Shown here: piece after piece, positions 5,370 through 35,414 of the stretch
Position numbering within the stretch: position 1 is the first letter of the stretch
Layout of the letters: every line of letters starts with the position of its first letter
Source of the DNA: Takakia lepidozioides
Lineage: Eukaryota; Plantae; Bryophyta
Assembly (NCBI GenBank): GCA_030704615.1
Contig: CM060734.1
Location: 40,734,001-40,798,000, forward strand
Direction: 5' to 3'
DNA length: 64,000 bases
Translations under genes and position numbers: made by a program
The notes under the pieces: model-generated
Seen by the model: the letters and a program-made list of their open reading frames with translations, nothing else
Told to the model about the DNA's origin: nothing
Databases searched by the model: none

Positions 5370-5371
5370 GC

Positions 5372-5713: not shown

Positions 5714-6016
5714 CTATCCAATGCAATGCGGACATAACCAATCCCCATCAGGAACCATCTCAAGAGGTGGAGTCAAGCATCCCATATGCCAACCTCTAGA
5801 GCATTGATCACACACCAGCATGGTGGCTGCCCCTCTAGTAGACCCACACAACATGCACCTCAAACTTGCAGGTACCACTGCCAGGTTTGGGTCACCCTTC
5901 CATCAACATTTTGGAAGGTGACATGGCGCGCAATTAGGCACATGGTCCTTCCAAATCATGCCATCCCGACCCTCCAAGATTAGGACTCCTGAGGGCAACA
6001 CCTCTCGAACCCTCAA
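5714..6016 (-). pseudogene. Integrase C-terminus plus PHD finger of the DNMT-Gypsy element
   Basis: Manual translation across small frameshifts: LRVREVLPSGVLILEGRDGMIWKDHVPNCAPCHLP-NVDGR-DPNLAVVPASLRCMLCGSTRGAATMLVCDQCSRGWHMGCLTPPLEMVPDGDWLCPHCIG*. Canonical C4HC3 PHD spacing at 5714-5857. Confidence 0.88.
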
Positions 6017-6535
6017 GGCTACAGGTGGAGTCTTGACTTCGCGGGGCCGTTGCCACTGACCATGCGCCACAACAAGTACATGTTGGTGATGGTGGAGCAC
6101 TTCTCCAAGTGGATCAAGTTGTTTCCATTGCCTGATAAGGCTATTGAGGGAGCTGCGTATGCATTCTTGGATTGTGTACTTAGCCGATTCGGTGCTCCAG
6201 CTGAGGTACTCACGGACCAAGGGAGAGAGTTCTTGGGGGAGTTTCAGGCGTTGTGTGACAAGGCCTTGGTAGACCACCGCCCCACTTCTCGGGATCATCC
6301 TGAGGCCGATGGCTTGGCAGAGAGGGTTGTTCAGACAGTGAAGAGGGGTTTGCGCAAGTATGGCTTGCAGAAGGGACACCTAGGAGATTGGGACCTTCAG
6401 TTACCTTGGTTAGCCATGGGCTACAGGATCCCCACAAGCATCACTTGCCTCCTTCTCCCATACTTTCTTCTCTTTGGCCGAGAGCTGGATTTGCCTGCAT
6501 CCATTCGTAGAGAAGCTGCTACAGTTCTCAACTTC
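6017..6535 (+). pseudogene. Integrase catalytic core (rve) of the DNMT-Gypsy element, locally inverted
   Basis: GYRWSLDFAGPLP..VMVEHFSKW..RFGAPAEVLTDQGREF..HPEADGLAERVVQTVK carries the D,D,E residues. Confidence 0.92.
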
Positions 6536-6911
6536 CCATGATCAGAAGAGGGTGCAATTGTGGAGTAGGGGCGTTGAATGAAGCACGCACCCTGTCACAC
6601 ACCATGCACCTAGCCACAATTTGTTGCACCTATGTGTGCATACCACCCACCAATACTGCCCCTGCAGTAGACTATGAGTGCGTTGCACCCCAAAATGCCC
6701 CAACTCCTCATGGGCATGCCGCACTAACCGTGCCCGCTGTGTTGGGTGAGGCACAATCCCACTCGACCATCCTCCCACACTCGAGCAGGTGTGTCCCCTC
6801 CCACTTGAACCTCTTGGCTCGTTGTAGGATCCGATCCCTCTCCTCATCCTTGGCAGTCACAGTGGCTGCCGTGTCTCCAGTGCGGAGGTAGTCCAACACA
6901 ACTGAATCCTA
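6536..6911 (-). pseudogene. Integrase N-terminal zinc-binding (HHCC) region of the DNMT-Gypsy element
   Basis: DSVVLDYLRTG..RDRILQRAKRFKWEG..IVPHPTQRARLVRHAHEELGHFGVQRTHSLLQGQYWW..CMVCDRVRASFNAPTPQLHPL (frameshifted). Confidence 0.85.
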
Positions 6912-7375
6912 TTCGAGGAGCAGCACGAGTTCCTGAGCCACAAGGTGCAGAGGTGGAGTTGGATTCACAACGTGGGGAGGCAAGCCGTCAGGCTAGGTTG
7001 CCTCAATCATTCATCTTGGCGAGATAGTGTCGACGACATCCATGGCACCTAATTCTCGCCCCACGGATCCGAGGCGGAGGTTATTGTGCCATTGGGAAGA
7101 GCTACACGTGCAGCAACTGACACCTGCTGCAAGGCTAGTGCAGCCATGGTTTGTTGGGGGCGGCCACCTCTTGTGTGTCAGGCCCCACTTTTCTCAGCAA
7201 CCATGATTGCGACTCCGAGGGTAAGACCAGCTGCATTGTTTCAGACTAGCAGCAACACTCTGTGAGAGTGGGGAGGTCACTTCATCTTCTGCGAAGTTAG
7301 TAAAGAATGTGTAGTGGCAGAGGATCCTCGGATTTGAGGGTCAAGACTGCCACGGCTGCGCCATGGCAAGCTGCA

Positions 7376-8099
7376 TGTCGCGGCCCTTTGCCTTGAGGGC
7401 AGGGGGTCGGGACACATGAGGGGCTGCCCCTGTGGTGGGGGCAGCGGCAGCGATAGGTATGGGGGGCTGAGGCACCCTTGAGTGCCCAAGGCACTCAGGG
7501 AGCGGAGGCGCTCACTAGGTGGAGCCCCGCACACCGGGTTGCGGTGGGGGTGGCTCCACAAGGGGTGGTGGTAGCTTAGTGGGACTTAGTGGGGGTGGCA
7601 TAGGACTCACCATGGGGGCGGAGACCTCGTGGTGGGAGTCGTGGGGAGTCTTGGGACTCATCACGGTCCATAGGGGCCGTGGTGAGCGGGCCAAGACTCA
7701 CCGCGACTCACCACCGGGAATCGAGGGTCTTCGTGGTGGTTCGCCATAAAATGGCATGGCTGGTTGTGAAACCCCCGCGGACAGCTACAGAAGTATATAT
7801 AGGGAGTAGTAACCCCGAGAACGGTGCAAGCCCGTTGGTGACCAAAAACTAGTGAGTAAGCGAGCGAGCCGGAAAGCGACCAAAGAGTGGGGAGCTGTTC
7901 CGGACTGCCATCTACCAAAGGGAATTCTCCTAGTCCCATTAGGTGGAGGGTTTTAGAGGGAAGCGAAAGGGGACCGTTATGTCCCGGTGAGCAGCCGAAG
8001 CTCCAAGTTGGCCCGGCGGCCAGGTTGGGAGTCAGGCGCGCGCATCAAAGCGAGTAACTATGACTTGAAGGGGAGTTTACCGAAGTGAGGTGCGCGACA
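7376..8099 (+). repeat. 5' LTR of chromovirus
   Basis: tgtcgcggccc...gtgcgcgaca; near-identical to the 3' LTR but about 135 bp longer. Confidence 0.96.
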
Positions 8100-8101
8100 C
8101 T

Positions 8102-8113
8102 TGGTATCAGAGC
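8102..8113 (+). promoter_or_regulatory. Primer binding site (tRNA-iMet)
   Basis: TGGTATCAGAGC two bases after the LTR end. Confidence 0.95.
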
Positions 8114-8154
8114 TTAGAGTTAAGTACGCGATCGTCCTTGGGATTGGCCTCATC

Positions 8155-11100
8155 ATGGGGTCGGGCAAGCCGAAGCGAAAGCGGAACGGCCCAAAAGATG
8201 ATGATCCCTGTGAGCCCGATGGGGGCGACGTGTCACCGAGGCGGCCGTTTGAGGAAGCGATGCATGTTTCCGAAAACGAGGCCGCTCAAGAGAGCGGGAG
8301 GAATCCGAGGAGTCGGAGCCCGAGGAATCCTTGAGAGCTCCGACAAACCAAGAGATGCCTCCCATGCCGGCAGCCTTTTGGGAAGGGTTGTTGGCGCAGT
8401 TTGGCGGGACGTTGAAAGACGTGTTGAAGGCGGCTAATGCCACTTCCACTAAGGCAAAGTTTAAGGTGAAGCCTAAGGAACCCCGGCACCTTCGAGGGCG
8501 TCCGAAATCGGAAGGCACTCAACACCTGGCTCCTTGGAGCTAGAGCAGTACTTCCGGGCGGCCAAGTTGAGTGACGAGGATCGGGTGGAAGTGGCCCCAC
8601 CTATTTGAGGGGCTATGCTCAACAATGGTGGCAGAAACGCCTTCACGACCGAGGTCTCAATTCCGGTGAAACCTGAACTGAGTGGGGTTCAAGGAATTGT
8701 GAAGAGACAGTTGTGCCCTTCAACGCTTCCTGGCTTGCCCGGACAAGATGAGGAATTTGAAGCCAACAGAATGACATTCGGGGTATGTCCAGACTTTTCA
8801 ATGTGCCTGTTGCCTCGAATCGCGGACATGGCAGAACCAGAAATGGTCTTCAACTTTGTGGCGGGACTGGCCCATGGGCCAGGCCGGAAGTTGAGGAGAA
8901 ACCACCCAAGACTTTGAATGGGGCGAGGCATTGAGAGGGCTGAATGTTTCTCGGATGTCCCTAGTGGTGAAAGACAAGGCCGTACGGAGCTAACCACAAG
9001 AAGATTTGGCGGGAAGGTGACTCCTTCCGACCAGAAAAAAGTGGGATAGGCCACGCGGCAAAAATGGCACGTGGAAATCGAAGGGAGGGCCTTCACACGT
9101 CAATGGCGGCTCCGGTGCTTCGAAAGGAAAAGCGGGGTGGAGCGGCTTATGGCGGACAGAAGGCGACCTTTTATGGAGTGTGTTTTCAATTGGGGGAGCC
9201 CAGGCCCAGGCACATGGCCAAGATGCACGAAGCCCCGACAATTGAACATGACTCGGGCGACCACGGAGCTGTCAAAGATACCATCAGTCCGCTTGGTGTA
9301 AGCGGTGGTTGCCAGGACTTGCAAGGTAGGCAATTTTCTTGTGAGTTGTATCAGGAAACTGGCGCCTTACGAAAAGGAGTCAGTTATTGTTCGTGGATGG
9401 ATAATATCCGGAACTAATGCCGTTGTTGGTGGACACAGGAGCGTCGCACTCCTTCATGACACCGGCAACGGCACAAAAGCTGGGACTCCCGACAAGTGAC
9501 GTTGGGGCCTCTATTGAGGTGCGTTCTGCCAAAGGAGAACCACAGTTGGCGACAAGGTTGGCGATTGATGTTCCTCTTCAACTGGGGAGTTGGGAGGGAC
9601 GTGAGAACTTCACCATCTGCGAGATCGATGGAGTGGATCTCATTTTGGGATGACCTTTTTGAGCAAATCCGGAGCGGTCATAGATGGCCGCAAGAGAGTA
9701 GTCACGCTGCCATATGGGAATGGTGGCGAGGTTTTACGAGTGTCTGAAACGCCCAAATCCGTGGGAGGACGAATAAACCTTCTATCAGCAAAGGAGTGGG
9801 CCGTGGAGGAGGCACACGAGCCCCAGTTTTTGCTTTACATTAGAGAAGTGAAAGGAGAAGGCGATGGGGAACCGAGCCCAGATTGGATCAAAGGGATTTT
9901 GGAGAAATACCAGGATGTGATGCCGGAGGATTTACCAAGCGGCTTGCCACCGCGAAGAGGAGTTGACCACAAGATTGAGGTGATACCGGGATCGGAACCG
10001 CTTGCCAAGGCGCCCCACCGGTTGAGCCACAGAGAGTTGGTCGAGCTGAAGACTCAGCTCAAGGATCTAATGTCAAAGGGGTACATCCGGCCGAGTAAGT
10101 CACCTTACGGAGCCCCGGTGCTATTCGCAGACAAGAAGGATGGGACGCTACGGATGTGTGTCGATTACATGGCTCTGAATAAGGTGACTATCAAAAACCG
10201 GTACCCTTTGCCAAGGATCGACGACCTCTTCGATCGGTTGGCAGGAGCGAAGTATTTCAGCCGGATCGACTTGCGCTCTGGCTATCACCAAATTCGGGTG
10301 GCGGAAGGAGATGAGGAGAAGACCGCGTGCAGGACAAGATATGGTTCATATGAGTTCTTGGTGATGCCTGTTGGGCTCACCAATGCACCAGCGACATTTA
10401 GCACGCTGATGAACAGCCTTTTCCAGGAGTGGTTGGATGACTTTGTGATCGTGTACATCGACGACATCTTGGTGTACTCGAAAACAAAGGAGGAGCACCT
10501 GGAGCACCTCAAAGGGTGTTCCAAAATTGCAAGAAGGGAAGCTGTATGCCAAAGCTTCAAAGTGCGAATTCGGGGTCACGAAAGTGGAGTTCTTGGGGCA
10601 TGTGATTACACAGGATGGGATCAAAATGGATGACAGAAAGGTGAGGGCGATCTTGGACTGGGAGCCTCCGACTTCGGTCCCGGGAGTGCGATCCTTCCTA
10701 GGACTCGCCTCCTATTACCGGAAGTATGTGAGAAATTTCGCCAAGATTGCGGGGCCGCTGTCAGACCTTCTGTGTAAATCTAAAGTCTGGGCATGGAACA
10801 CCTTTTGTGGCCAAGCTTTTGCTGAATTGAAGCAGCGGATGGCGGAAGCTCCAGTCTTGAAAATCCCGGAGTTCGATCGTCCATTTGAGATTCATACAGA
10901 TGCGTCGGACTTCGCAATTGGGGGTGTACTTATGCAAGATGGACGTCCAGTGGCTTACGAAAGTAAGAAACTGAATGAAGTGGAGCGACGGTGGCCGACG
11001 CACGAAAAAGAGATGAAGGCGGTGGTGCATTGCCTTGAGCTCTGGCGCCACTATGTTGGTTCCAACCCAGTGAAGGTGTTCACGGACAATGTCACGGTGA

Positions 11101-12718
11101 AGTATTTTGCCACGCAGCCCAAGTTGTCCCCAAAACAACTTAGGTGGCAAGATACTTTGGCAGTGTTCGACGTGGATATCCAGTACAAACCGGGACGGGA
11201 CAATGTGGTGGCCGATGCTTTAAGTAGAAAGCAGCAGCTCTTGTTGGTGTACAAGGGCGAGACGGCACTCCAAAGGAAGATCCGGAAGGCTTGCCGGAAG
11301 GATGAGCTGGCGAAGTCCGTGATGCAGGACTTGAGGATGGGGGTTAAATCGCAGTTCCACTTGCAAAATGGACTGCTCCGGTATAAGCAAAAGCGTCTCT
11401 ACGTGCCGAAGGGAGGGATCAGGGATAGTCTCTTGAGAGAATGCCATGATAGCCCGCTTGCGGGCCACGGTGGAGCCAAGCGCACTGCGGCACTCTTGAA
11501 GAAAGAGTATTTCTGGCCCAAATTGAGGGAGGAGGCAGAGGAGTATGTCAAGACATGCACCACATGCCAAACAAACCGGAGCGAGTACAAAAAGCAAGCG
11601 GGGCTGTTACAACCCTTGCCGATTCCAGAGGGGACTTGGGAAAGCGTCTCGATGGATTTCATGACTGCTATGCCGCTGTCAAAGGATTCGATGCAATCAT
11701 GGTGGTGGTAGATAGGTTCAGTAAAATGGGCCATTTCATCCCCACCAAGGAGACGGCAACGGCGCAGGAGACAGGGCGACTTTACTTCGCCCACGTCTTA
11801 AAGCATCATGGAGTCCCGAAGGATATTGTCTCGGACCGCGATCCAAAGTTTACGAGTAAATTCTGGAGAGCACTTTGGAAGAAGATGGGGACGAGGCTGA
11901 AGATGAGCACCGCCTTCCGACCTACGACGGACGGCCAAACAGAAAGAGTGAATTCCGTAGTGAAGCAATTCTTGCGGAATTACGTGTCGGCAGACCAATC
12001 AGACTGGATGGAACACTTAGACGCGGCAGAGTTCTGTTATAATAACACAGAACACTCCGCAACGGGAGTTTCCCCTTTCGTGTTGGTCTATGGAAAAGCA
12101 CCTCTGGTGCCGACAAGTTGGGCCGCCCAGGACGTTGAGGAACCGGCAGTAGCGGCGGTACTGGAAGAACGCGAGCGTTTGTTGAAGCTCGCAAAGTACA
12201 ATATTGCCAAAGCTAGGAAACGGTATGAAAGGCAGGCGAATCGGAAGCGGAGGGAAGTGAAGTTTGAGGCAGGCACAGAGGTCTGGTTGAACATCAAGAA
12301 TTTCCGACTACCTCCGGAAGTGAGTCCGAAGTTCGTACCTCCGTATGCGGGACCCTTTCGCATTCGGAAGGTTATGAATGAGGATGTGTATGAATTGGAG
12401 CTACCGGCAAACAGCAAAGTGCACCCAGTATTCCATGTCTCCCTTTTGAAGCCTTACTTCAAAGATGAAGCGCGTCCGAATCGACATCAAGTGTTGCATC
12501 CGCCACCTATGCTGTTGGATCATGAAAATGAACCTGAGTACGAGGTGGAGGCAATACTTAAGTCGAGGAGGTTCAGGAACCGAGAAACGGAGTATCTCGT
12601 CAAATGGAAGGGCTATCATCATGTGGAGGCATCTTGGGTGCGTGCCTCAGAAATGGGAAACGCATCCGAGGCGGTTGCAGCTTTCGAAGGGCGACCTCAA
12701 AAGTGGAAGAAGCGTTGA
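8155..12718 (+). pseudogene. Chromovirus gag-pol (frameshifted): gag, protease, RT, RNase H, integrase, chromodomain
   Basis: Protease LLVDTGASHSF (9417); [33 protein letters not shown]; RNase H TDASDFAIGGVL; integrase HDSPLAGH..CTTC..SDRDPKF..DGQTER; PYAGPF; chromodomain EYEVEAILKSRR..EYLVKWKGY..ASW. Confidence 0.95.
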
Positions 12719-13620
12719 TGGGGACATCAACCTTGGAGCGTGGGGGAGGAAATGCATGCTTAGCCCGGCTTAGCTAGCTTAGGAATCCGATTGCAAAAAC
12801 TTGTATTGTACAAAATGTGCTATAAATGAAATGGATTCCAAATGTTGTGCGTCCTATTTTGTTTGGAATGGTGATGCATGGTATGGTTGGCTAGTGTGTA
12901 GAATGCATGCTAGCTTATAAAAGTGGGAGAGGTAAATTGGGTTAATCGTGTGTTTGCGTAGTGCCGAAATCGGGTGACCCCATCCAAGGGGCAAGGAAAC
13001 TTGCGCCTTCTTTGGGAGTTCACGTGCTAGTGCGCACCTGGCGCGTGCGCATACTATAACTGCGCTACCGAGGGGGTTGCCTTGTAGTGCGGGCTAACGC
13101 GGAAGCTACGTGCTTCCGTTCACGTACTATAATCGTGTAGCCTCGGGACGAAGTCGTAGTGCGGCTTCGGCGTGTTCCCGTACCTCAGGCCAGCATTCCA
13201 AGGCGGACCCAATTGTAGTGATTGGGGCGCACGGTTGGTTCAAGGTTATCTTCCTAGTCAAAGAGGGTTCCAGGGAACCCTTGCTCAAGATGATGCCAAA
13301 AGCGGCATCATGAGCGGTCGCAAGCAATGTTGTTGCAGTAAGGCGATTCGATCCTCAAGGAGGATTGTTCCTTGGCCTTGAAGTAGGCCAAGAAGAGTGC
13401 ACAGGGAGGAGCTTGAGAGGCTCCACCCTTGGCCGGGACTTGGAGGAAGTCGGCCGAACTAGCTAGTGGAGAGTAGAGTCAAGTGTGGGGTTTGGTTCTT
13501 TGCCATGGGACGCCATGGTACGGAAACAAACTCCTTGATGTGGGACGCCACAACTTGGATGTTCGTTTCTACAAAACGACAAGTCGATGAGGACATCGAC
13601 TCCCTGTTGGTAGGGGTGTG

Positions 13621-14209
13621 TGTCACGGCCCTTTGCCTTGAGGGCAGGGGGTCGGGACACATGAGGGGCTGCCCCTGTGGTGGGGGCAGCGGCAGCGATA
13701 GGTATGGGGGGCTGAGGCACCCTTGAGTGCCCAAGGCACTCAGGAGTCGTGGGGAGTCTTGGGACTCATCACGGTCCATAGGGGCCGTGGTGAGCGGGCC
13801 AAGACTCACCGTGACTCACCACCGGGAATCGAGGGTCTTCGTGGTGGTTCGCCATAAAATGGCATGGCTGGTTGTGAAACCCCCGCGGACAGCTACAGAA
13901 GTATATATAGGGAGTAGTAACCCCGAGAACGGTGCAAGCCCGTTGGTGACCAAAAGCTAGTGAGTAAGCGAGCGAGCCGGAAAGCGACCAAAGAGTGGGG
14001 AGCTGTTCCGGACTGCCATCTACCAAAGGGAATTCTCCTAGTCCCAATTAGGTGGAGGGTTTTAGAGGGAAGCGAAAGGGGACCGTTATGTCCCGGTGAG
14101 CAGCAGAAGCTCCAAGTTGGCCCGGGCGGCCAGGTTGGGAGTCAGGCGCGCGCATCAAAGCGAGTAACTATGACTTGAAGGGGAGTTTACCGAAGTGGGG
14201 TGCGCGACA
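13621..14209 (+). repeat. 3' LTR of chromovirus
   Basis: tgtcacggccc...gtgcgcgaca, preceded by a G-rich tract; carries an internal deletion relative to the 5' LTR. Confidence 0.96.
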
Positions 14210-14211
14210 CT

Positions 14212-15069
14212 GCAGCTGCCAGGTTGACGGAGCTGCCAGCTAGGCCAGCCTTTGAGCGCGCCATGGTGACACCTGAAGTTGTCTTGTTAGACAACCAGGA
14301 TGGCATTTTCTCTTTGAGTGGACCGGCAGGCAAGAGGTACCGGCCATTGCGGGTCTTGTTGGACTCGGGAGCTCAGCCACTGATGGACAGAGCTGCTATT
14401 GCAAGTTTGGGCCTCATGGAGGCGGATATGGAGCCTTGTCATTTCCAAATACAGACATCTCTGGGAGGATCAGAGCAGGCTTGGGGCATGACACGGCGTG
14501 AGTTGGCCATTAGGCTACAGCTGGATCATCTTATAGATGGCTCAGTGATGCGAGCCAATGCCATTGTGACAGATGCGGTCTCTTACGATGTCCTCATTGG
14601 TAGGGCAGTGTTATATCCCATGGGCTTCACCCTGGATTTTTGGGAGGAGTCGGCATCCTACAGGCCTGGATGGCAGTCAGGGGATGGTCGTCGTATACAA
14701 CTCCCTGTGACATTCATTGGGGGTGTTGCTGCTGCCCAGTGGGGCAAGATGCTAACACCAGCCGCCTTTACAGCTGCAGTTAGTTGGCCTGGAGAGTTGC
14801 TGGAGGGCAATGCCCATGCAGAGGATGTGCCACCTCCAGCAAAGCATGATGACATGCATGGTACGGCAGAGTTGTCTGCCATGATTGCTCACACTCCATT
14901 GTGGGGTACGAGCAAGGATTTGCAGCAGGCTGCTGATAGATGGGTGCAACAAGCCTGGGTAGAGGCATTTGTACCGTCACGAGAGGAGGAGAGTGCGGTG
15001 ATTGCACCAGGACCACCTCAGTTGTCGCCATTGGACACCACACCTCTTGTGTGGCAGTGCCCGGATGAA
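14212..15069 (+). pseudogene. Aspartic protease region of the DNMT-Gypsy polyprotein (continues in frame from 6912-7375)
   Basis: RVLLDSGAQPLM..SYDVLIG. The frame joins across the TSD (..PWQAA|AARLTELP). Confidence 0.88.
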
Positions 15070-16020
15070 GGCATATGCCTTCTGGACTTGTTTGGCGGGA
15101 TTAGCACTGGATTGGCTGCAGTGCTACAGGCAGGTGTACGAGTTCGACGTTACCTATATGTGTAGAGGGATGAGACTGCACGACGCGTCTCACTGCGCCA
15201 TGTTGCTCAGTTGGTGCAGCAGTACCCTGATTTGTTGCCAGTGTCTGCAGTTTGTGGATACCAACAAGCCTTGCCAGCAGACATCTCATTGCTGGGGGTG
15301 CATGATTTGGAGCGGGTTGGCCCTATTCACTTAGTAGTGGCAGGTTGGCCCTGCCAAGGGCTTTCATCAGCTGGGTATGGCAATGGGTTACAAGACTCAA
15401 GGTCACGCCTGTTTTGGGAGATCTTGAGGGTCCTGCGCTATTTACAGCTTCAGCAGACAGACTCTCCGGCATATATCTTGGAGAATGTGCCATTGATGGG
15501 TGATTCTCGGGCCAAGGTGATGGCCAGTGTACATCAAGTGCGGTCTTGGCTTGGGTCAGCAGTGTTGCTGGATGCAGTTGCAGTGGGGTCACGGGCTCAT
15601 CGCCCACGACTATGGTGGACCAACTTGATGTCACCTGCATTGCTCAAGCGTGCATTTGATGGGGTGCAGCGGCCACCAAACCTGACGGTGGATAGCATTT
15701 TGGACATAGGGAGGCAGTCTCGGCGTGTGAGACACGATGACCAATCACCTTTGGCAGTGGTCAATAAGGTGGGTCACCCACAAGCAGCATTGCCTACACT
15801 GCTCAGTTTTCCAGGATCTCATGCTTTCCGGGATGGTGGACCTGGCCTCTTGTGGGATAGCCAATTGCAGCAATTAGTGGAGCCCAATGCTGACGAGCGC
15901 GAGCGGGCAATGGGTTTCACGACTGGTACCACGGCGGTGCCCTCTCTTTCTGAGGCATCACGTCGTCAGGTGTTGGGGCAAGCAATGGATCTCAATTGCT
16001 TGACCCGGATCATCAGCTTG
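15070..16020 (+). pseudogene. C5 cytosine DNA methyltransferase domain (DNMT3-like motifs) embedded in retrotransposon pol
   Basis: Motif I LLDLFGGISTG; II YLYV*RD (one TAG where E is expected); IV GWPCQ with catalytic Cys at 15352; VI ILENV at 15481; VIII AHRPRLWWTNL at 15601; IX ERERAMGF; X RRQVLGQAM. Same frame as the protease upstream and RT downstream. Confidence 0.93.
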
Positions 16021-16449
16021 GCTATGGCTGAGCAGCGCAGAGTGCAAAGTACACTTCCCTTCATGGTCTCCCTGCCTACCGAGATGGTACAGGCAGCGAG
16101 TGGGGGTGAGCAGGTGGGGACCACGAGGTGCAGGCCGCATCCATGGCACACGTGGGAGGTGCTCGAGGTTCAGAAGGAGTTGGCAGCCAAGGTGGCGGTG
16201 ATGGATCAGGTTGGGGATTTTTCTCGGATTGAGGAGGTCCTCAAGGATGGGATGATGGGGCAGGATGAGACATTGTCACTGACAGAGGAGGAAGTGGTCA
16301 CTGCTCAAGAGGTTGCAGCATAGCAACCACGGGACGCATCTTCTACCTCTAAGCCTGCTGGACTCAAGGTTGCAGTCATGGAGGACAACTAGGAGCCTGA
16401 TGTTGGACCTATAGTCACCGGAGGAGAGAGACGACGTATACGGCGGTTC

Positions 16450-18020
16450 TTGAGGGCTTACAGGAACTACTTTGCCTTCAGTTTGAAGGACTTAGGAGCA
16501 CTGAAGGGTCAAGAGATTCGCATTGAATTGGCTACTGACATGCCAATCTTTCGGAGACCCTATAGATACAGTGACATGGAGAGGTCCTTGATTCAGATGA
16601 GAACTCAGGACCTTTGGGAGGCTGGTTTGGTGGAGCTATCTGGGGGAGAGTATGCTTCAGCCACAGTGATGCCAGCCAAGAAGGATGTCTTTGGCAATTG
16701 GACGGAGAGACGTATGTGCGGTGATTACCGGCCTGTAAATCGTCAGACCAAGTCCGATAGGTATGCCATGCCAACACCAGAGGAGATCTTTGATGCCATT
16801 GGGCATGCCAAGGTCTTTAGTACGTTGGATTTACGATCCGGATATCACCAGTTGCCGATCAAGGAGGCGGATAAGCAAAAGACGGCATTCTGGGGGATCA
16901 ATGAGCACGGGAATGATTGCCTATACCAGTGGCGGTTCTTACCATTTGGGCTTAAGAACGTTCCGGCAGAGTTTCAGAGAGTCATGGACAGGATCCTAGT
17001 AGGGGTGGAGTTTGCTCGGTGCTACATATATGACATCATCATCTTTAGTACTACGGTGGAGGAGCATGAGAGACACATTCAGGTGGTATTTGAGCGGTTG
17101 AGGGCGCACGGATTGAAGTTACATCCGGGGAAGTGCAAGTTTTTCCACAACCAGATTGAGTATCTGGGTCACATGATATATCCTGGAGGATTGGGGGTAC
17201 AACAGACTAAGGTAGAGGCCATTGCACAGATTCCACGCCCCATGGATGTGAGCCGAGTTCGAGCTTTCATGGGGTTGGCAAACTATTATAGACGGTTTGT
17301 CAAAGGATTTAGTGCCATTGCAAAGGCTCTAATCAAACTAACCAAGATGGACCAGGAGTGGCAGTGGGAAGATGAGCAAGAACAAGCTTTTCAAGAGCTC
17401 AAGGCGAGGTTGACCTCGGCGCCTATCTTGAGACGACCTATCAGGGGGCGTCCTTTTCAGCTGCATACAGATTGGAGCATGTTGGGGCTTGGAGCGGTGC
17501 TCACACAGGTGGATGATGAGGGAAGAGAGTTCGTAGTGGCTTATGCTAGCCGCTCGAACAACGTTGCAGAGTCTAAGTATAGCTCATATGAGGGAGAATG
17601 CTTAGCTGCAGTGTGGGCCGTGGCACACTTTAGGTGCTATCTATACGGCAATCTCTTCACCCTTGTCACGGATCACCAACCGCTCAAGTGGTTGATGGAG
17701 TTAGACAAGCTTACGGGGAAGCTTGCACGGTGGGCACTCATCCTTCAAGAGTATGACTTTCAGGTTGTGCATCGACCGGGTTTGGTCAATGGGGATGCAG
17801 ATGGATTGAGTCGCAATCCATGCACGAGCTAGCAAGATGACACTGGAGCTCGGTGGCATGGTGAGACGGACGAGGAGGTGGTGCCCAGATGGCATGCATC
17901 TGCATTTCTGTGTATCTTGGCAGCGGAAGGCCAGGTTGAACCTGCAACAGGGATGACTGTAGATCAAGTGTCTGAGGACCCTGAGGCCAGCAATGAGCAA
18001 GGTGGCGCCAAAGATATACA
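16450..18020 (+). pseudogene. Reverse transcriptase plus RNase H of the DNMT-Gypsy element
   Basis: [38 protein letters not shown] (YxDD mutated to YIYD); RNase H LHTDWS..YASRSN..EGECLA..TDHQPL..ADGLSR. TAG at 17830, then linker to EQGGAKDIH. Confidence 0.95.
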
Positions 18021-19635
18021 TGACGGCTGCAACAGACTCCAGTGGTAGTGCTGCCCCACACATAAATCCCATGCCTCCCATGTCTCCTCCGTCAGGATGA
18101 CGCTGCTGAGGAAGAACAGGAGGTGGACCCTCAGGTCTTGGAGCTGGTACCACCTGAGCTGTGGCCATGGCAGCAAGCCTTTGCTCTAGCTGCTGAAGCC
18201 GGTTGGCCATACCTTTGTCAACACCCTGACCTCCACGTCCTTGGCCATACTATGCTTGCCCTCGTCCTGCACCTCGTGCCTGAGCACCTCGTCCTCTCTG
18301 AGGTGCTCCACCTGGCCCTCGGCCACCATTGTTCCCTTGGAACTAGCCTCGCCGCAACTCATGGTGCAAGTCATAACACTGGGCATCTTCATGCCCATAT
18401 TTGCCACAATGCCCACACTGCAACTGTGCAGGCTGTGCTTGTGCCAACCCTTTGCCACTTTTTGGGCAATCTTTCTTGACATGGGGTCCTCCACATGTCC
18501 AACATACCACCCCTGGTTGCTGTTGGCCTGCAAAAGAAGCTACTGGCCTCTGCCCCTGAGGTCCCCTGTAAGCTCCATGGAATTTGGGTTGGGAAACCTT
18601 GCCCCCCTGACCATGCTGTTGGGCAGTCCCTTGTGCCTGTTGGCTGGCAGCTGCGCCTCGTGTAGGCATGTCTTTGCCAAATCCAATGGTAACAACTCGC
18701 TCCTCTACCATGTTGAGCTCAATCCGCTCAGCCAGCAGAAACACATCTGCTAATGTGGGTTGGGCTGATTGTAACAGGGTTGCATCCTGCACCCTTCTCC
18801 TGAGCTCCTTGTCCAAAATTCCATACCAGAATTGGATTGCCTGAGCTTCAGTAACCCCTTGGGTCACACTTATCAAGCGCCTCATACGAGCGTAGGCCTC
18901 TCGCAAGCTCTCACTGGATTTGCGCTGGAAGTCTTGCAAACTTCGCAGCTTCTCTATCCGTACACCTTGGTAGTTCCTTCGCAACTCCTGGAAGAACTCC
19001 ACCACTGGGCTGAATCTAGGCACATATGTTGTAGTCGTGGCAGGAGGAGTAGGAGCACCTTCTGCAGAAGTACCGGCACTACTTGTTCCACTACTAGTGC
19101 TGGCCGTGGGAGATATTGGTGCTGATGCCGCTACTGGTCGCGTTGTGCCTCGAGTAATGGAGACGTGGTCAGGTGACCAATACATCCTCCACTCCTCAAT
19201 CTCTGCTTCATGTCCTCGCCTGAACTCGTGGTAATCGTCCATAGGCGGGCCTTTCAAATGCTGGAACAATCCCTTCCACGCCATGAATGGGATGAACAGA
19301 TGTGGATTGCGCATCTGCTGCAAATCACACCAGCTGTCGAACTCCTGGATAAAGTCATCCAGCTCGATTGTGCCCACAACTCCAGAGTACCTACGAGGCC
19401 CATTGGTAGCTCCATACATCTCCTCCATGTCGTCCCACAATAATGACGAAGAAAACTGCACACTTGTTGATGAAGCCTCCGGGTCTGTGTCAGACTCTAC
19501 AGTAGTCGAGGGTGGAGGTGAAGGTGGTCTGAACCGAATACCTCGTCTTGTGAACCCACTCTCACTGCTACTGCCTGTAGCCATACTCCCCTCACAACCC
19601 TTGGGTAACTCCGTGATGACACTCACAACGTGCAC
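18021..19635 (-). pseudogene. gag of the DNMT-Gypsy element (two CCHC knuckles, RG-rich tail)
   Basis: RYSG..ELDDFIQEFDSWCD..FQRKSSESLREAYARMRRL; knuckles CWTCGGPHVKKDC and CGHCGKYGHEDAQC. Continues in frame through stops to ..LESVAAVM at about 18021. Confidence 0.88.
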
Positions 19636-21642
19636 CTCCCCTACGTGACACTATAAGGCTCTAGTACTAATTCTAATAGTGACACGGGTGGGCACCTGTT
19701 GCAATTTAAGGGTCATATCCCAGTGGCTCAGGGCACCTACACCTGCATCCACGGCAAGAACTCCTATGGTTGGCTGGTCATCATTCCAGTCTCACCATAG
19801 AAGAAACACCGGTGGTCTTGCTGGTCATCACTCCAGCCTCACCACCGACAGCATACTCTAGGATTGACCGGTGATCAAATCCAGCCTAATCCCTATGAAA
19901 ACAAGCGCCCACACAAAACCAACATGGCGCACAGTCAAGCATGCAGGTGTTGGGGGGGATCCAAACACAAGAAATCAAAACATCAACACCCCCACACCAA
20001 AATCCATTTGCAGTGCTGATCCTGCAGAATATCCCAGCCCAAAAACCCCGGACTGACTGGCCTCCACCAAGAGAGGCTTTGGCAACTACAAGTACAAAGT
20101 AATGAAAATAATAAAGAGAAGGAGGGGAAGAATAGAGGCCCAACCAAGCAAGATCTAATCCTGATCTATGCTATGAACTGCCAGACTTCCCTCAAAGTGC
20201 CTCGCTCTACATGATGGTAAGGTGTAGGAGGTATATCTATGTCCAGAAACCTGCCACTAACCTTATCCCAAGCTACAGTAGCTTGCTCTAACCAACCCTC
20301 CTCCTCTCTCTACCAGGTAGAGACAAAGCAATACTCCCCTATCTCCCGCTCACTGAATACTAAAGAAAATAAAGGTAGGGTCTGACAGTCTCTCAACTCA
20401 AAAGCTTTGAGACGGTTGCGGGTGTCTGCATCTCCTTCAAGCAGAACAAACTTTTCATTGCTAATGAACCCCCGCTCGTGGTTGCCTTGTGCAGAGCGTG
20501 TCCGGCTGCAACCATGTCTGATTGCACAAACTTGTGTAGCTCCTGCTCCTCTGCTCCAATACACCACGGCCTTGTGGCTGAACACCTTGGTCCCTGGGGC
20601 TGTCTTTGGCTGTGTTCCAAGCCTAGCTTCCACCCACTTTGGTATTTCACCTACAGCTGCAGAACTGCTTGCTCCAACAGAGTTCTAACTGTCCAAAGCA
20701 ATATTGAGGCCCTCAATGCCAAGTACTGTAGTTTGTTGTCTATTGCTAATGCCTGACTCCCACTATGCAATCAACTCGTCCAACTGCTCTCCATTCACAT
20801 CAGTCTGAGTTCCTTGAGAAACATAAATCTTGTCTCCTTGTGTGCACAGGCTAAGAGAAGAGACCTGCCCTTCAATTACGTCCTCATTTCCCCCAGCCAT
20901 ACAAGGAGGACATCCACAGATTTGTCTCTCATGTAGACCACAACAGGTTCTAGAAACAGAATGTGGATCTTTCATAGCACACTCACACTCACACTCAAAA
21001 AATTCCATAGATTTTTAGCAGAGTCCAAAAAACTAAAACCAGGTCTAGATAGGTAGATTTCCCCTTTCTACAGCTATCCCCTCAAAAACGCCTCTCATTT
21101 TAAGATAATAGGGTCTTCAATGGGCACGTGCGATGTGGCCGGTGGGCCGCGCGCACGGACGCCCGGCTCCCCAGCACCCCGCCCGCCCCGCCCGCCGCTG
21201 CGCGCGGTCGCCCTGCCGCGGGCGTGGTTGCAGCAACCGCGCCCGCGCGGCTAGTCCCCCGCCCATGAGTCCGCTACCCTCCAGTCTGCCAGTCCGCTGC
21301 TGGCCAGTCTGCTGCCCAGCAGTCTGCTAGTCCGCCAGTCTGCCCGCCAGTCCGGTGTTGGCCAGTCCGGTGCCCAGCAGTCTGCCAGTCTGCCAGTCTG
21401 TCCGCCAGTCCGCTGGCCAGTCCCCTGCCATCCAGTCCGCTGACGGCGCATGATCGCCACCGTCCATTCCCATAACCCATCCGAGCCCTCCATTTTTAGG
21501 GCTGCAATTCAAACCTGCATCCCTGCCACTTGCCAGCAGCCGCGAACATGCGCACTGTTCTCCTGGCACGTTGTCGATCGTGTCCTGTACTGCGGCGCGT
21601 TTCTTGCATGTTCAAAAGCGTGTCCTTTGTATTGTATAGGGC

Positions 21643-24600
21643 ATGGACGTGGAAGCAAAACCCGATGATATACTGATCACGGAAAGCCCGCTTATACGGC
21701 CTCTTCAACAATGTTTGCAAACAACAAAACCAAGACCCTTCAACAGGAAGGATCTCCATTGGAAGAGTGAGACGCAATATGGGTTTATGGGTGTGCAAGT
21801 GAATGTTGAAAAGGCCTGCATACCTTGGGATAGAGTTGGTGACTTCGTCGTGGGAGAGGAGAGTTTGGAGGACTACCCCACTCAGTTTTGGGTGAATGTC
21901 CATTCTAAAGTGGAACCCGGCTCGCGAAAAGCACCCAGAGCCAACACATTTCTGTCCAGTATTATGTGTGCACCATCCTCAGTCCTTTTGACGTTTCATT
22001 GCATGTCTATTGCCATTTTTTGTTTCACGAGTTCTTTGATTTTATGCTTCCTCAAGTCGTTGGATATCGATTTTAGAATTTTCTGTCCAAGTATCAATGC
22101 TGCTACGGTCCTGATGACAAGCACACCAACAAGGCAATAGTGGAGGATCCAAAACAGAAGCGTGGAGGACCTCTTGTGGGTGTTGGAACATCTTGCCCTC
22201 ATAAAGGCTCAAGGAGAAAGAAGTTGGAGTATGGAGAGTCTTACAAACGTGGTTGCCAATGCTGTTTCAAGGTCCAGCAACTGACATCTGTGTCCTCACG
22301 TACTACAACAACATGGAGCATACAGATGCGCAAGGAAAACCCTCGCATGGGAAGTCCGCAGAGTTCAGGAACACCCGCCACGCCTATGCACCACACATTA
22401 GCGAGGAATTGAAATCCTGGGTCGTCGAGTGTTTGTGCGAGGCCTGTCGGTCGCCCAAATCATGATGGAGCATAAAGAGCACGTGATGAACAACACCGGC
22501 TTGGGCGATGCATGGACCCGCGATGATTTCTTGTTGGAGCAAGATGTTCGCAACCTTGCCGAGAAACGTGCGTGGCAAACCTTCAAAAAGCACGCCGATG
22601 ATGCAGAGAGTGTGCGCATGTGGAGAGACCAGAATCCTGCGTCCGTTTTTTTCTATCAAGAGGAGAAATTAGAGCCAACATTCGAGCATTTTGATGGAGA
22701 TTTGACATTCACTATTGGCATACAGACTCCGTGGCAGAAACGACGAATGCTGGAACTAGGACATGACCGTATCGTTGCATGTGATGCAACATTTGGGACA
22801 AATCATGACAAGGTACTATTCGAACGATTCCATGGACTTGTACGAGCATGATAGCATAGTACCATGCAACATTCACATAAAATTTGGTGTGCTGACCCTT
22901 TCTGTATGTTTTCATGTGTACGTTGCGGAAGACCGAGGGGCAGACCCATTGTGAACCGCTGCAGACCTCATCACTCTTATGAAGTCTTCTCGTGCAGAAC
23001 TGAGCGAAATTTGCATGCTCTGACCATCTTACATTGTGCATTTCAACAGTTCCCATTGTACACGTTGATGGTCTTCGACGAGTGGTTGAACGGTATACCA
23101 GTTGCCTATATCCTATCCGCGAGGAATCGGACAAGAGACCTGGTTCCGTGGATGAGAGCCTTGCGCGATTCACTCCTCGCAGATTTGCCGAGCTGGCGAC
23201 CCAATGCCTTCATTGTGGACGATGCCGAAGCAGAAATCAACGCTATTCGGTAAGTTTGTTGGTCCACAGTACCGGTCCATTGCCGAGGTCCACTGCAGCA
23301 GTCCATTGCTACAGTCCAGTGGCAAACTCCTGTGGCGAAACCCGATGGCAGTTCGCTGGGCAAATCCACTGGTAGTCCGCTGTCAAGTCCGCTCATCCGT
23401 CCCCTGGAAAGTCTGCTGGCAGTCCCCGACAAGTCCACTTGGCAGTCCGCTGCCAAGTCCGCTGCCAAGTCCACTCAGCAGTCCCTGGGGTCGGCCGTCC
23501 GCTGCCAAGTCCACTCTGGCAGTCCACCATTGCAGTCCGATCCCAAGACTCTAATGTGTACCATGTGTGTTGTGCATAATTGTTTTTGAAGGAGTACTCA
23601 TTTTCCTCTGCCTTTGGCATGTCCGCAAGGCATGGGTGAAGCAATCATGCAAGAAAACGAAGGATCCAGTGACCGCTGTAAACTTGTTGAAGGATATGGG
23701 AGACCTCATGTACTGTAGAGGGGGACCACGCAACGAGAAAAGAGCGCTTCGGTGGGTTGCAAAGAGAATCCGTCGTATGAGGTCAAAATACCTGAAAGGA
23801 CATGAATTTCTTGACTATATCGAACAGTACTGGAAGCCCAAAATAGTAATGTGGTGTACAGCAGCCCGCCATGTCCCTCATGCGAGCCAAGACACAAACG
23901 CAAGCATTGAGGCATACCATGGAAATCTGAAGGCAAGACTTGCCATGGGGAAATGCAAGATGAGTGGTCGTAGAGTGGACTGGCTTATATGGGAACTCAC
24001 TGGCCGTGTGCTAACACACTACTGGTACGCAATCCATTTGAAGACCCACGGGTTCATAAGAAATGACAAACACGAAAAGTACATATCCAGTTCTATAATT
24101 GCGGCACGAAACATTCCTGCTGAGAGTATTACTCTTCCCTTGGGTCCTGGTGAACCAGCCTACGTTCTCAGCAACAACCACCCCAACACAACATACATTG
24201 TTTACAATCCTGATTGCGATTGGGGTTGTTGCACGTGCCCATGGGCAATGAAGGGAAACTTATGCAAGCATCAGGTCCGTGTCCTGAAGATGCTTCACCC
24301 TGACCTGCAGGATGGCCTCCTGTGCGCGCTTGTGGCACGGCGCTGGAACCATTCATGGAGGATTACCTAACTTGCTCTTGGGCAATGGTGCCAGCGGCAA
24401 CGACGAATCCAATCAGTTCATGGAAAGACATCCTCCGGACGACTTCCCCTACGACGAGGCACCTCTGGAGGTCTCAGCCTCAATGGAACAAGAATTCGCG
24501 GACATACTTCGCATTGTAGGTGATGACAAATACCTGGAGGCACATGCCCGATCTGCTCTTCATATGTGCAGAGGGCAGCTCGTTGATATCCTGACGAAAA

Positions 24601-24830
24601 GTGCGGCTGGAATGTTGCACCCTGCGGCAGCGAAGGCTTTCCGTCCTCTGAACGACAACAACAACATGTCTCTGAAAAGGAGACGAGATTTCGTGGAGGC
24701 CTGGAAAACCCGGCCTAGGGTTTTGCGGAGAACCAGCAAGAGGGTGTCTGCACCTGCACCTGCAACACATATATACTCGAAAATTCGCAAGGTTTCAGGT
24801 CGTGTAGATGTCACAAAGAAGACAATATAA
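21643..24830 (+). mobile_element. MULE (Mutator-like) transposase gene with SWIM domain, intron-containing, degenerate
   Basis: YQCCYGPDD, KRGCQCCF, CDATFGTNHDK|FPLYTLMVFD (GT-AG intron 22813-23049), FIVDDAEAEINAIR (donor at 23250), FLCLWHVRKAW (CxxH), TNASIEAYH, SWIM CCTCPWAMKGNLCKH. Frameshifts present. Confidence 0.9.
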
Positions 24831-24975
24831 GTCTGCAATGCCTCGAAAAGAGACAAGGTTTCACGTCGTGTAGGTGTCACGAAGAAGACAATATAAGTCT
24901 GCAATTCCTCGAAAAGAGACAAGGCTTCACGTCGTGTAGGTGTCACGAAGAAGACAATATAAGTCTGCAATTCCT
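24793..24975. repeat. Tandem repeat, ~66-bp unit, about 2.8 copies
   Basis: ttcacgtcgtgtaggtgtcacgaagaagacaatataagtctgcaattcctcgaaaagagacaagg repeated head to tail with no spacers. Confidence 0.9.
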
Positions 24976-25599
24976 CTGGTGGCATTGTCCCTTTCTGAAA
25001 TACAAGTCCGCAATGGACTAATGCACAGTCTCCCAATGGACTCCTCCAGTCTCTCAACTGACTCCCACACAGTCTCCCAAGCATAGTCTCCCAACGGACT
25101 CGCATAGTCTCCCAACAGAGTCAGTCAAAGTACTCCCGTCGCTGTCAGTCTTTCTCACCACCTTCCACCTCATCCCTGCACTCTTCCATCATACTGCTGG
25201 AACACACTAAGTCTCTGCTGCAGACTCTCCACACACTCAGACTCAACATGGACCAGGCTCCAGTGACTAACCTCCCTAACGACTCATGCCAATCCAGCGT
25301 CCAGCGACTCAAGGACATGGTGCCTACCAGACTAGGTACCAGACCCCCAGTCCTAGCCTCGGCAACGTACTACTGCTTTGCACATTCAAGCTCAGCAGAC
25401 TCGGGTGCACAGTGCATGGAAAAAATTGACACCATTGTGTCCATTGAGTTAGTGACAACATTACAAACATCCAGCACCCACAGTACACAAAAGTGCTCAT
25501 CACCACTGGAAAAGACTCGCATTTTTTATTTCGGTACATAGACTTCACAGAGACAAGTACATCATACTCATGAGAGCAGTTTCTCTACATTGTCCAACC

Positions 25600-26613
25600 C
25601 CCGCACGATATACTTGCACACTGCATTCGCTGCCCAAGTGCAAAACTTGAAAGTAAACCATCCTTCGTGAAAGGTGTTCCTCTCTCTCTGGCTTTGCAGT
25701 CTTGGAGACATTTCCTCTAACTTTTACCCCTCATAAACACTTGAATGAATGACATGACGTAAAGCCACACCCCAGCTGAATGGTTGCTAGGGCACATCAG
25801 GCGCGTGGAACTGAAATGCTTGGACAATCTCATGCCACTCTGGTGAGTCCATCGAGTACCCTAAGCACTCAGCATGAAGCTTCCGAATCCACCTAGAACA
25901 AAGGGACATTTATGCGAGTCCCTGATAGAGTTCAGGTGAGTGTAATAGCCCTTGCGGAGGTCGATGATACAAACACTCCAGTGCCCCCTGCAATGGTATC
26001 AAACAACATGGCGTCATTGCACAATCATGATGGGCAGACTCGGCAGACCGACCACTCAGCAGACTCAGCACTCAGCAGACTCAATCTTCAAACCCAGTCC
26101 ACTGCACAAATACAGAGGTCAACTTAATCGCTCAGAGTCAAGACGACACTACGAAACCAGACTATGACTCAGGAGACAGTCTCAACAGACTCGGAAGAGT
26201 TCTTACTCGTCCCCAATTGGCACCAAAATGAAATCGCACTCTTTCAAGTCCTTGCCCAGTCCTTCAGTGCTGAGGCAACCTTTCAAGACCTCCAGAAGGC
26301 TTTCACGTTGCCCCACCCCCAATGACTTCAACACCGTCCACGTCGACGTTGGAAGAACAACAATAGTGTTGGTGAACGCAGCCTCAACCGACTTCTCATA
26401 GAATCGACACCACAGCTCTAGGAGTCTATCTGTGCACTCCAACTCAACCTTCTGGAGCGCCTTTATGTCATCCGGCGACAGTCCGCATTCAAACCGTGGG
26501 TCCCCTTCAAAAAACATCAGCATGGAATTACCCGCCTTCACGTGCAGAGCATGTGCTTTGCAAAACCGAGCACCCATCCTGCACAGAGCAGACCATCCTT
26601 CGGGAAGCCTCAT
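25600..26613 (-). pseudogene. Ulp1/SENP-like cysteine protease (Peptidase C48) gene of the MULE, multi-exon
   Basis: Exons translated by hand: ..CDFILVPIGDE|; GHWSVCIIDLRKGYYTHLNSI (~25990-25915; catalytic His, Asp position is Asn); ..DVP*QPFSW-CGxYVMSF (Gln/Cys motif). Confidence 0.75.
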
Positions 26614-26799
26614 GTACTGAACAGACTGACGTCAACATGGTACCAAACACTCTACAGGCTGAACAATTCATCAGATTGACAAGACTAACCACAACAGACA
26701 ATGATGAAACCAGCAGCAGACTGACCAGAGTGCAGACTGACCACAACAGAGCGCAAAGCACTTAACGACAAAGACAGACGAGGAGACTAAGCACAATAC

Positions 26800-35400: not shown

Positions 35401-35414
35401 AATGATGCGGGAAG

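Follow-up and report, generated by a model that had tools for sequence, protein, structure and literature searches.

Does the C5 cytosine methyltransferase encoded among retrotransposon domains in the moss Takakia lepidozioides belong to the element, and if so, with which of the element's proteins is it made? We addressed this in a window of 64,000 nt (contig CM060734.1, positions 40,734,001 to 40,798,000). An earlier note, made from the sequence alone, had placed a protease, the methyltransferase, reverse transcriptase (RT), and RNase H in one frame with only isolated TAG stops, and had read the methyltransferase as an intronless domain inside pol. The shared frame was confirmed. Positions 14212 to 18030 on the plus strand contain four stops only, all TAG (15163, 16321, 16390, and 17830). 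With stops read as X, the Pfam search named beforehand as a check gave DNA_methylase (PF00145, E value of 3.7e-10, 40.2 bits with a cutoff of 22) and RVT_1 (1.5e-28), as well as RT_RNaseH (6.5e-35). The methyltransferase motifs are FGG (15091), PCQ (15349), ENV (15481), RPRLWW (15601), motif IX (15895), and motif X (15976).

This frame is the middle of the element only. The complete element occupies 4932-32486 on the minus strand, interrupted by two inversions (as assembled) and two insertions, and its gag, integrase, and ends were found elsewhere in the window (Table 1). It is a dead, internally scrambled Ty3/Gypsy-type retrotransposon copy carrying its own DNMT3-type methyltransferase, and many copies of the element are present in the host DNA. 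Contigs of runs X6 and X9 exit the window sequence at 18023 and resume with the minus-strand sequence of 6909; inverted repeats at the inversion ends do not exceed 7 nt. The frame appears to start at 14212 because the nested chromovirus inserted before it. The LTRs of this chromovirus agree at 98.7% over 469 nt, and it has RVT_1, RNase H, rve, and Chromo matches. The other insertion looks Mutator-like from weak SWIM and Ulp1 matches, both under the Pfam cutoff. The leader gave no Pfam match in three frames, and the Retrotrans_gag match of the N-terminal gag part is weak and under the cutoff. The protease has no Pfam match in the window copy, while Asp_protease matches were obtained in several homologs. 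The integrase core matches that of relative L025 at 73%.

Table 1. Parts of the element in the window, in element order from its left end
Feature	Coordinates	Strand	Evidence or remark
5' repeat A1	32325..32486	-	First 162 nt left; starts TGTCA; element's left end
Unrelated insertion, 11.2 kb, splitting A1 and leader	21090..32324		Family contig cover stops at ~21089
Leader region	19651..21089	-	Family contigs of three runs span it
gag, N-terminal part, one internal stop	18024..19650	-	55% to Marchantia Mp4g09160 residues 1-415
Large inverted segment (gag C-terminal part, nested chromovirus, protease, methyltransferase, RT, RNase H)	6910..18023	+
gag, C-terminal part, decayed	6910..7375	+	72% over 36 residues to Mp4g09160 residues 445-480
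Nested chromovirus-type Ty3/Gypsy	7376..14209	+	TG..CA ends; target duplication CTGCA
Aspartic protease	14332..14631	+	LLDSGA at 14356
DNMT3-type C5 cytosine methyltransferase (predicted)	15067..16041	+	Motif order unrearranged; interrupted by stop at 15163
Conserved in-frame stop and 3' context TAG-CAA-CCA	16321..16329	+	End of Gag-protease-methyltransferase ORF; candidate readthrough site
RT (catalytic motif altered) and RNase H	16462..17811	+	Pfam, motif alignment
Integrase zinc-binding region, frameshifted	6534..6909	-	Integrase_H2C2, E value of 2.9e-8
Small inverted segment with integrase core, ends approximate	6015..6533	+	rve, E value of 2.5e-12
PHD finger, integrase C terminus	5723..5857	-	PF00628, E value of 1.7e-11, over cutoff
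Repeat B1	5372..5458	-	Purine run (PPT-like) before it
Palindromic B1-A2 junction GACA-GC-TGTC	5366..5375	-
Repeat A2	5019..5369	-	Three short hairpins inside
Repeat B2	4932..5018	-	Terminates in GACA; element's right end

The repeats follow an A-coding-B-A-B layout in the window copy and in loci L043, L047, L050, and L053. In the window, A1 and A2 differ by 1 mismatch in 162 nt and B1 and B2 by 4 in 87 nt. The element ends are TG..CA, and 4-bp target duplications were found in the window (ACCA, at 32490-32487 on the left and 4931-4928 on the right) and in all four complete loci (three distinct sites; CATA, AAGG, and TCTC). The palindromic junction of B and A is present in nine loci, intact or with one or two changes. 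Titles of papers on "split direct repeats" point to DIRS-type elements. A tyrosine-recombinase element of the DIRS/PAT type was ruled out by the rve and H2C2 matches, which mark a DDE integrase in the coding region, and by the ends and the 4-bp duplications. The internal junction would serve as a template restoring both element ends, and its two middle bases would be the overhang trimmed by the integrase. Split-repeat ends combined with integrase hallmarks suggest an uncommon route of restoring cDNA ends, and programs that look for LTR pairs are likely to overlook such elements.

The methyltransferase is unrearranged from motif I to motif X, without the rearrangement of DRM enzymes. The DNMT3 resemblance seen earlier held in both sequence and fold comparison. 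The best solved relatives of the window domain are DNMT3A/3B (E value of 3e-13), ahead of M.HhaI (2.5e-4) and DRM2 (2.6e-3), and the predicted structure of a stop-free relative, L004 (pLDDT of 89), has DNMT3A/3B as its top Foldseek match (1e-19). Both this ranking and the existence of DNMT3 genes in non-flowering plants (PMC6453930) would also fit a DNMT3 gene or retrocopy of the host that happened to lie within a retrotransposon. We see practically no chance of this. The host plant gene is described as multi-exon with a C-terminal DUF3444 (PMC6453930), but the window frame has no introns and no DUF3444 match in Pfam, the domain sits at the same position in dozens of relatives, and it shows selection across lineages. 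Between lineages, its dN is 0.21-0.29 with dS from 1.7 to saturated, and its conservation is 65-70%, versus 52-54% for the protease; judged by these rates, the methyltransferase is under purifying selection across lineages. Near-copies in the largest family give the domain a dN/dS of 0.5-0.8, which is expected after death and lends no support to selection. CpG ratios are uninformative (element, 0.36-0.49; nested element, 0.86; unrelated Gypsy, 0.21; relatives, 0.27-0.98). The window copy itself is dead, as had been claimed, because it has a stop in motif II (15163) and an altered RT catalytic motif, shared by none of 45 and none of 43 relatives, respectively.

The stop at 16321 is of another kind. 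Of 41 aligned relatives, 39 have a stop at this position, mostly as TAR-CAA-CY, versus 14 loci for the second commonest stop position. All 38 loci with an in-frame methyltransferase-RT linker stop there, as does the window. The linker is 355, 400, 421, or 475 nt long in the four lineages and differs in sequence too, with the frame preserved; these counts come from the DNA of four independent lineages only, and most loci are decayed near-copies from one family. CAA-CC or CAA-CT follows the stop in 44 of 45 rows having the motif in frame, a count biased by the fact that the rows were found by searching for the stop motif, while the 39/41 alignment and the linker count are unbiased. Of the other in-frame stops, 592 in all, just 10 precede CAR-YY. 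The stop codon is TAA in 10 of the 45 rows, and the motif is absent from three of 50 linkers (L049, L052, and L075), all frameshifted. Among 49 close database proteins, 41 terminate 55-180 residues beyond the methyltransferase, Marchantia and Calypogeia ORFs included. Because of the conserved stop and these protein ends, the methyltransferase can be assigned to the end of the Gag-protease ORF. As read from these alignments, it is part of that ORF, and RT-RNase H-integrase-PHD lies downstream in frame. The earlier description thus stands in that all four stops are TAG and that the domain is element-borne between protease and RT; it does not stand in taking every stop for decay or in implying a continuous polyprotein.

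A single continuous Gag-Pol, with each TAG due to decay and the enzyme released from Pol at the RT level, does hold for the algal element KnitGypsy (PMC5890265), and 13 proteins of <45% identity run the domain into RT (e.g., P0108 and a Closterium protein). For the present family we regard it as highly improbable, since the stop is present in all 39 close rows whose linker is in frame. Relatives were found in Marchantia, Calypogeia, Sphagnum, and Closterium, and in Scenedesmus with the domain at another position; several Marchantia ORFs retain all motifs examined. A branch separates the proteins ending shortly past the domain from the rest (16 of 35 rows, support of 96/94) in a tree whose rows were chosen by hand from 103, with P0052 and P0142 left out; these two are classed as ending after the domain by rule, yet lie outside the group in a larger tree. 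The same branch has support of 0.95 and 0.98 in larger trees. Its status as a clade depends on the root because the tree has no true outgroup or host DNMT3. In the RT tree, we disregarded the row "L050 neighbour", whose translation is frameshifted; P0009 is a spliced gene model.

On balance, we think that the methyltransferase probably ends a Gag-protease-methyltransferase ORF at the conserved UAG and that RT-RNase H-integrase-PHD is made by occasional readthrough. Most ribosomes would halt at the UAG, and rare readthrough would yield the downstream proteins. Methyltransferase and protease would then be made at about 1:1 with Gag, in excess over RT and integrase, because most ribosomes would stop. 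A looser readthrough consensus is CAR-YYA, and we found no paper linking CARYYA readthrough to LTR retrotransposons. The triplet after CAA is CCC, CCA, CCT, CTA, or CTC, never UYA, with CAA-CCA in the window and CAA-CCC in the largest group. Type I leaky stops of plant viruses have UAG followed by CAA-UYA and allow 6-10% readthrough in transgenic Arabidopsis (PMC2754532). As in tobacco mosaic virus and BNYVV, two coding regions of the window family are divided by one conserved in-frame UAG, with CAA and then two pyrimidines behind it and the polymerase domain farther downstream (PMC2754532). The second triplet differs (CCA, CTA, or CCC, not UYA). The inexact match to CAA-UYA is a counterpoint to readthrough. 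Conservation of CAA-CC may also reflect a Gln-Pro protease site, or a 6-bp hairpin that surrounds the stop in two lineages. RNA structure 3' of the stop gave no signal (z-scores of +1.2, -0.6, and -1.0), and viral contigs gave just four weak matches to the motif. No variant falls at the stop among the 40 variant places listed of 742, which is uninformative.

The TAG ends in AG, a possible splice acceptor. The stop could be real and bypassed by partial splicing onto this AG, with the methyltransferase still on the Gag side. Ogre elements splice out the region between Gag-protease and RT in part of their transcripts (PMC6317226), annotated Marchantia and Sphagnum gene models fuse the methyltransferase to RT, and a U-rich stretch precedes the TAG in the largest family. 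However, the junction is different in each of the four gene models and never coincides with the stop, and the 60 nt upstream of the stop are just 18-35% U. Moreover, the 240 nt upstream are open in the coding frame only in all four lineages, and linker length differences preserve the frame. We therefore consider splicing unlikely. A contig of run X9 spans the stop region unspliced; the RNA origin of this run is a guess, and the contig was not counted as evidence. Reinitiation or a separate transcript downstream of the stop would be another source of RT-integrase, and an AUG does occur 2-4 codons past the stop in L001 and L039. The first AUG is 18 codons past it in the window and 47 in the near-intact L004 (a 6.2-kb frame with a single further stop), there within conserved sequence and beyond conserved pre-RT residues. 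As reinitiation would not need the frame that is preserved across the stop, we give this little credence.

Under readthrough, the protease would free the methyltransferase inside the particle, where it would methylate cytosines on new cDNA ahead of integration, most likely in CG by analogy with DNMT3. Methylation of the target site, suggested earlier beside that of the cDNA, is likewise conjecture. The PHD finger would steer integration through histone tail reading. Because the enzyme would be in excess, it may reach other DNA as well. With the conserved stop, one would expect a different dose, namely, a plentiful enzyme uncoupled from RT, contrary to the published cis-only argument (PMC5890265). 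Because it would be made without RT, the case of the KnitGypsy authors for action in cis, which relies on a shared ORF (PMC5890265, peer-review file), is weakened. The same uncoupling would fit a stricter reading of readthrough, namely, that the methyltransferase acts in trans by binding or methylating DNA of the host or of competing elements, or is a DNA-binding part of the particle, and leaves the cDNA unmarked. The KnitGypsy domain was without activity in yeast, in a test that its authors deem inconclusive (PMC5890265). However, catalytic motifs IV and VI are kept in all 12 long ORFs examined, and the fusion of the domain with RT or integrase in other branches suggests action on cDNA; we find such a role improbable. 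Readthrough with marking of the cDNA remains our preferred reading. More tentatively, and with more doubt than belief, we suggest an old green-plant lineage, from chlorophytes to mosses and liverworts, of integrase-using retrotransposons that combine a PHD reader with a DNMT3 writer and, having no tRNA primer site, rebuild their ends from the palindromic junction inside the element. The land-plant branch of this lineage may have moved the translational switch to the position right after the methyltransferase, which would give active DNMT3 at capsid-protein levels, able to mark the element's cDNA and, in trans, host DNA as well.

The kind of element is already published (PMC5890265); the window family differs by the stop between methyltransferase and RT. 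Charophyte examples had rightly been cited as reported, namely, KnitGypsy-Dnmt3 of Klebsormidium nitens (de Mendoza et al. 2018, PMC5890265), and streptophyte elements of this kind have been named "Gypsy-DNMT3" (bioRxiv 10.64898/2026.05.21.726589). The host was supported as a non-seed land plant. In line with the novelty claimed for embryophytes, we found no paper placing DNMT-bearing retrotransposons there, and the text available from PMC9289625, PMC9477723, PMC9516144, and PMC12344493 has nothing on them in land plants. Such elements are now placed in land plants, the model liverwort Marchantia among them. Since Marchantia ORFs keep the motifs, the use of the enzyme to the element becomes testable by genetics and methylomes. 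The spread over Scenedesmus, Closterium, and bryophytes questions an "independent acquisition in the K. nitens lineage."

Among known systems, the Phygy clade of Physcomitrium is likewise a bryophyte non-chromovirus Ty3/Gypsy group with a 4-bp class duplication (PMC6317226). Phygy prefers NCGN targets, whereas none of the four distinct sites of the window family, a small sample, is NCGN; "methyltransferase" and "PHD" are absent from the main text of the Phygy paper (PMC6317226). Ogre also separates a Gag-protease ORF from an RT-RNase H-integrase ORF, but by a spliced spacer of ~274 bp (PMC6317226), in contrast to one stop, with the coding frame uninterrupted before and after it, and a Gag-side methyltransferase here. 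SymbioDIRS-Dnmt3, which has two domain orders, shares a retrotransposon-borne C5 methyltransferase and the repeat layout (PMC5890265), and EpiLTRs likewise pair a methyltransferase with a chromatin reader (10.64898/2026.05.21.726589). The window element, with its DDE integrase, DNMT3-type enzyme, and PHD finger, differs from DIRS elements, which use a tyrosine recombinase, and from EpiLTRs, which have a DNMT4-related DNMT and a chromodomain (10.64898/2026.05.21.726589). The closest counterpart in design is KnitGypsy-Dnmt3, compared here by its published description; no protein among the database matches bore the name K. nitens, but rows without a species name may include it. The PHD finger, the 4-bp duplication, and the junction palindrome were not met in the available part of that description (PMC5890265). 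In both, the Ty3/Gypsy coding region includes an unrearranged, intronless DNMT3-type domain under purifying selection, and the repeats have the DIRS-like A-coding-B-A-B layout (PMC5890265). The KnitGypsy domain, in an alga, shares its ORF with RT and RNase H, whereas in the land plant family a conserved stop splits them.

The plus strand of the window holds a single reading frame at 14212-18030 with four stops, every one TAG. Searched against Pfam with X in place of the four TAGs, the frame matched DNA_methylase (E 3.7e-10), RVT_1 and RNase H; the PF00145 match was thus found where the earlier note had proposed a methyltransferase (14212-18020). The order of the methyltransferase motifs is normal in the alignment. 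The DNMT3 likeness seen in the same note was borne out, as DNMT3A/3B are the closest solved structures by sequence (E 3e-13; M.HhaI, 2.5e-4; DRM2, 2.6e-3) and rank top by Foldseek (E 1e-19) when the model of a relative without stops (pLDDT 89) is searched. DUF3444, described as a partner domain of host plant DNMT3 (PMC6453930), was absent from the element frame in the Pfam search. Between lineages, the methyltransferase shows purifying selection, and its conservation is stronger than that of the protease. The window copy itself is dead, as had been claimed, because it has a stop in motif II (0/45 aligned relatives) and an altered RT motif (0/43).

The idea of one frame broken by isolated TAGs held for the frame but not for TAG 16321, which is a family feature: a stop occupies the aligned position in 39 of 41 loci. 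The window's other three TAGs align with stops in 0/45, 0/45, and 4/36 loci. The stop is present in all 38 loci whose methyltransferase-RT linker keeps the frame, plus the window, and is kept while the linkers vary in length and sequence among four lineages. It is followed by CAA-CCA in the window and relative L004, by CAA-CTA in L040 and L041, and mostly by CAA-CCC in the largest group; L039 has TAG-CCA. CAR-YY follows just 10 of 592 other stops, and the motif was not found in three frameshifted loci. Among close full-length homolog proteins, 41 of 49 terminate 55 to 180 residues past the methyltransferase. The eight exceptions are five annotated models joined to downstream domains (the four examined each have a junction of their own), two proteins with an early end, and one distant continuous ORF. 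Proteins terminating after the methyltransferase share one side of a branch (support of 96/94 in a 35-row subset, 0.95 and 0.98 in 103- and 225-row trees), with two stray rows of this kind outside it. In 13 more distant proteins, no stop separates the methyltransferase from RT. The conserved stop sits within a 6-bp hairpin, GGTTGC paired to GCAACC or GCAACT, in the window (16311-16328), L004, and L040; this hairpin was seen in two of the four lineages and is weaker in the others.

Occasional readthrough of TAG 16321 appears to be the best fit, because the frame is kept across the stop, the context is similar to that of leaky type I stops in plant viruses, the near-intact L004 has no nearby AUG, and the sequence upstream is unlike an intron. 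The type I signal is UAG CAA UYA (PMC2754532); the match to it is imperfect and comes from four independent lineages only. No RNA structure was detected 3' of the stop. If readthrough holds, methyltransferase and protease would be produced with every Gag and RT-integrase rarely. By analogy with DNMT3 biology, the methyltransferase may methylate cDNA, prefer CG, and also work in trans; the PHD finger, as PHD biology suggests, may guide targeting.

The missing parts of the element were placed in the window by matching to homologs, and they read as a single minus-strand element carrying two internal inversions. Contigs from sequencing runs X6 and X9 depart from the window at 18023 and resume with sequence at 6909 (-), which argues that other copies are colinear. 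The frame seems to begin at 14212 because a chromovirus interrupts gag. In run X1, 51,100 contigs match 14215-21100 and cover all 30 bins, methyltransferase included, so host DNA holds many family copies, although contig depth does not equal copy number.

Features placed in the window
Feature	Position	Strand	Remarks
gag N-terminus	19428-18157	-	homolog mapping
gag C-terminus	from 6914	+	homolog mapping
Integrase zinc finger	6909-6534	-	homolog mapping
Integrase core	about 6015-6533	+	homolog mapping
PHD finger	5857-5723	-	homolog mapping; Pfam E 1.7e-11
B1	5458-5372	-	downstream of PHD
A2	5369-5019	-	downstream of PHD
B2	5018-4932	-	downstream of PHD
A1 (first 162 nt of A)	32486-32325	-	1 mismatch vs A2
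Chromovirus-type Ty3/Gypsy element	7376-14209	+	inserted in gag; target duplication CTGCA; young, with chromodomain; 3' LTR internally deleted; pol frameshifted
Large insertion	21090-32324		broken-up Mutator-like transposase region, weak SWIM match; weak Ulp1 protease match (-); degenerate CAGTCTGC-type repeats close to either end
62-nt stretch, 79% alike	4121-4182 and 20995-21056		outside element; element leader
Decayed copia-like element	780-3600	-	
PPR gene region	34813-36150		repeated units
At least five germin-like genes	38400-53450		cluster
Two of these germin-like genes	46927-47732 and 52647-53452		97% identical inverted duplication
Unrelated decayed Gypsy	60372-62700	-	CpG o/e 0.21

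The element starts with TGTCA, finishes with GACA, and has ACCA on either flank. Its layout of terminal repeats, A-coding-B-A-B, recurs in four complete loci of about 9.2 kb, all with a 4-bp target duplication (three distinct sites). Since the B1-A2 junction reads GACA-GC-TGTC, both element ends meet there with two bases between; these bases may be an overhang trimmed by integrase, and the junction could serve as template for both ends. It occurs, intact or slightly decayed, in nine loci, one from a distant second architecture. No tRNA primer site (TGG start) was present just 3' of A1 in eight of eight loci (L002, L009, L047, L050, L053, L054, L056, and L077). In some of these, the first 7 bases of A recur in inverted form at its end.

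The land-plant context suggested earlier agrees with a nearby germin whose best named matches are in Sphagnum (70 to 75%), Diphasiastrum (68%), Physcomitrium (63%), and Ceratodon (62%), which points to a non-seed land plant, probably similar to mosses, as host; the contig has no Ns. Marchantia Mp4g09160 and a Calypogeia protein each share 72% identity with the methyltransferase, which has further relatives in Sphagnum fallax and Closterium. Two Marchantia homologs, P0064 and P0065 (Mp_Vg00370 and Mp_Vg00540), are annotated as hypothetical genes and each consist of a long Gag-protease-methyltransferase ORF; such genes sit on the male V chromosome and autosomes. Against the methyltransferase-domain profile, 512 clusters at 50% identity reach E<1e-30.

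The second architecture, RT-RNase H-methyltransferase-integrase-PHD, includes Scenedesmus sp. PABB004 P0290 (KAF8056149.1) and loci L048, L055, L058 to L060, L062, L064, L068, and L072. It is very diverse and forms a separate branch (99/99, 35-row subset tree); L068 has GACA-GC-TGTC downstream. In an RT tree built without methyltransferase-free relatives, the group is nested among the others with modest support. One capture, then a later move of the methyltransferase, would fit this tree.

Capture of a methyltransferase by such an element is already published: KnitGypsy-Dnmt3 of Klebsormidium nitens is described with DNMT3 within its Pol ORF, DIRS-like repeats, purifying selection, and a domain that showed no activity in yeast, and the authors' reply to reviewers favors cis action because the domain shares an ORF with RT (de Mendoza et al. 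2018, PMC5890265). A 2026 preprint (10.64898/2026.05.21.726589) names a streptophyte "Gypsy-DNMT3" without detail where it mentions it. Searches of openly available papers turned up no account of such elements from land plants, in keeping with the earlier note, nor of the stop. The repeat layout is common to KnitGypsy-Dnmt3 and the present family, which probably work alike. New in this analysis are the conservation of the stop, the mapped element ends, and the intact Marchantia ORFs, all directly testable. Unlike KnitGypsy-Dnmt3, compared by its published description, the present family does not carry the methyltransferase in one ORF with RT.
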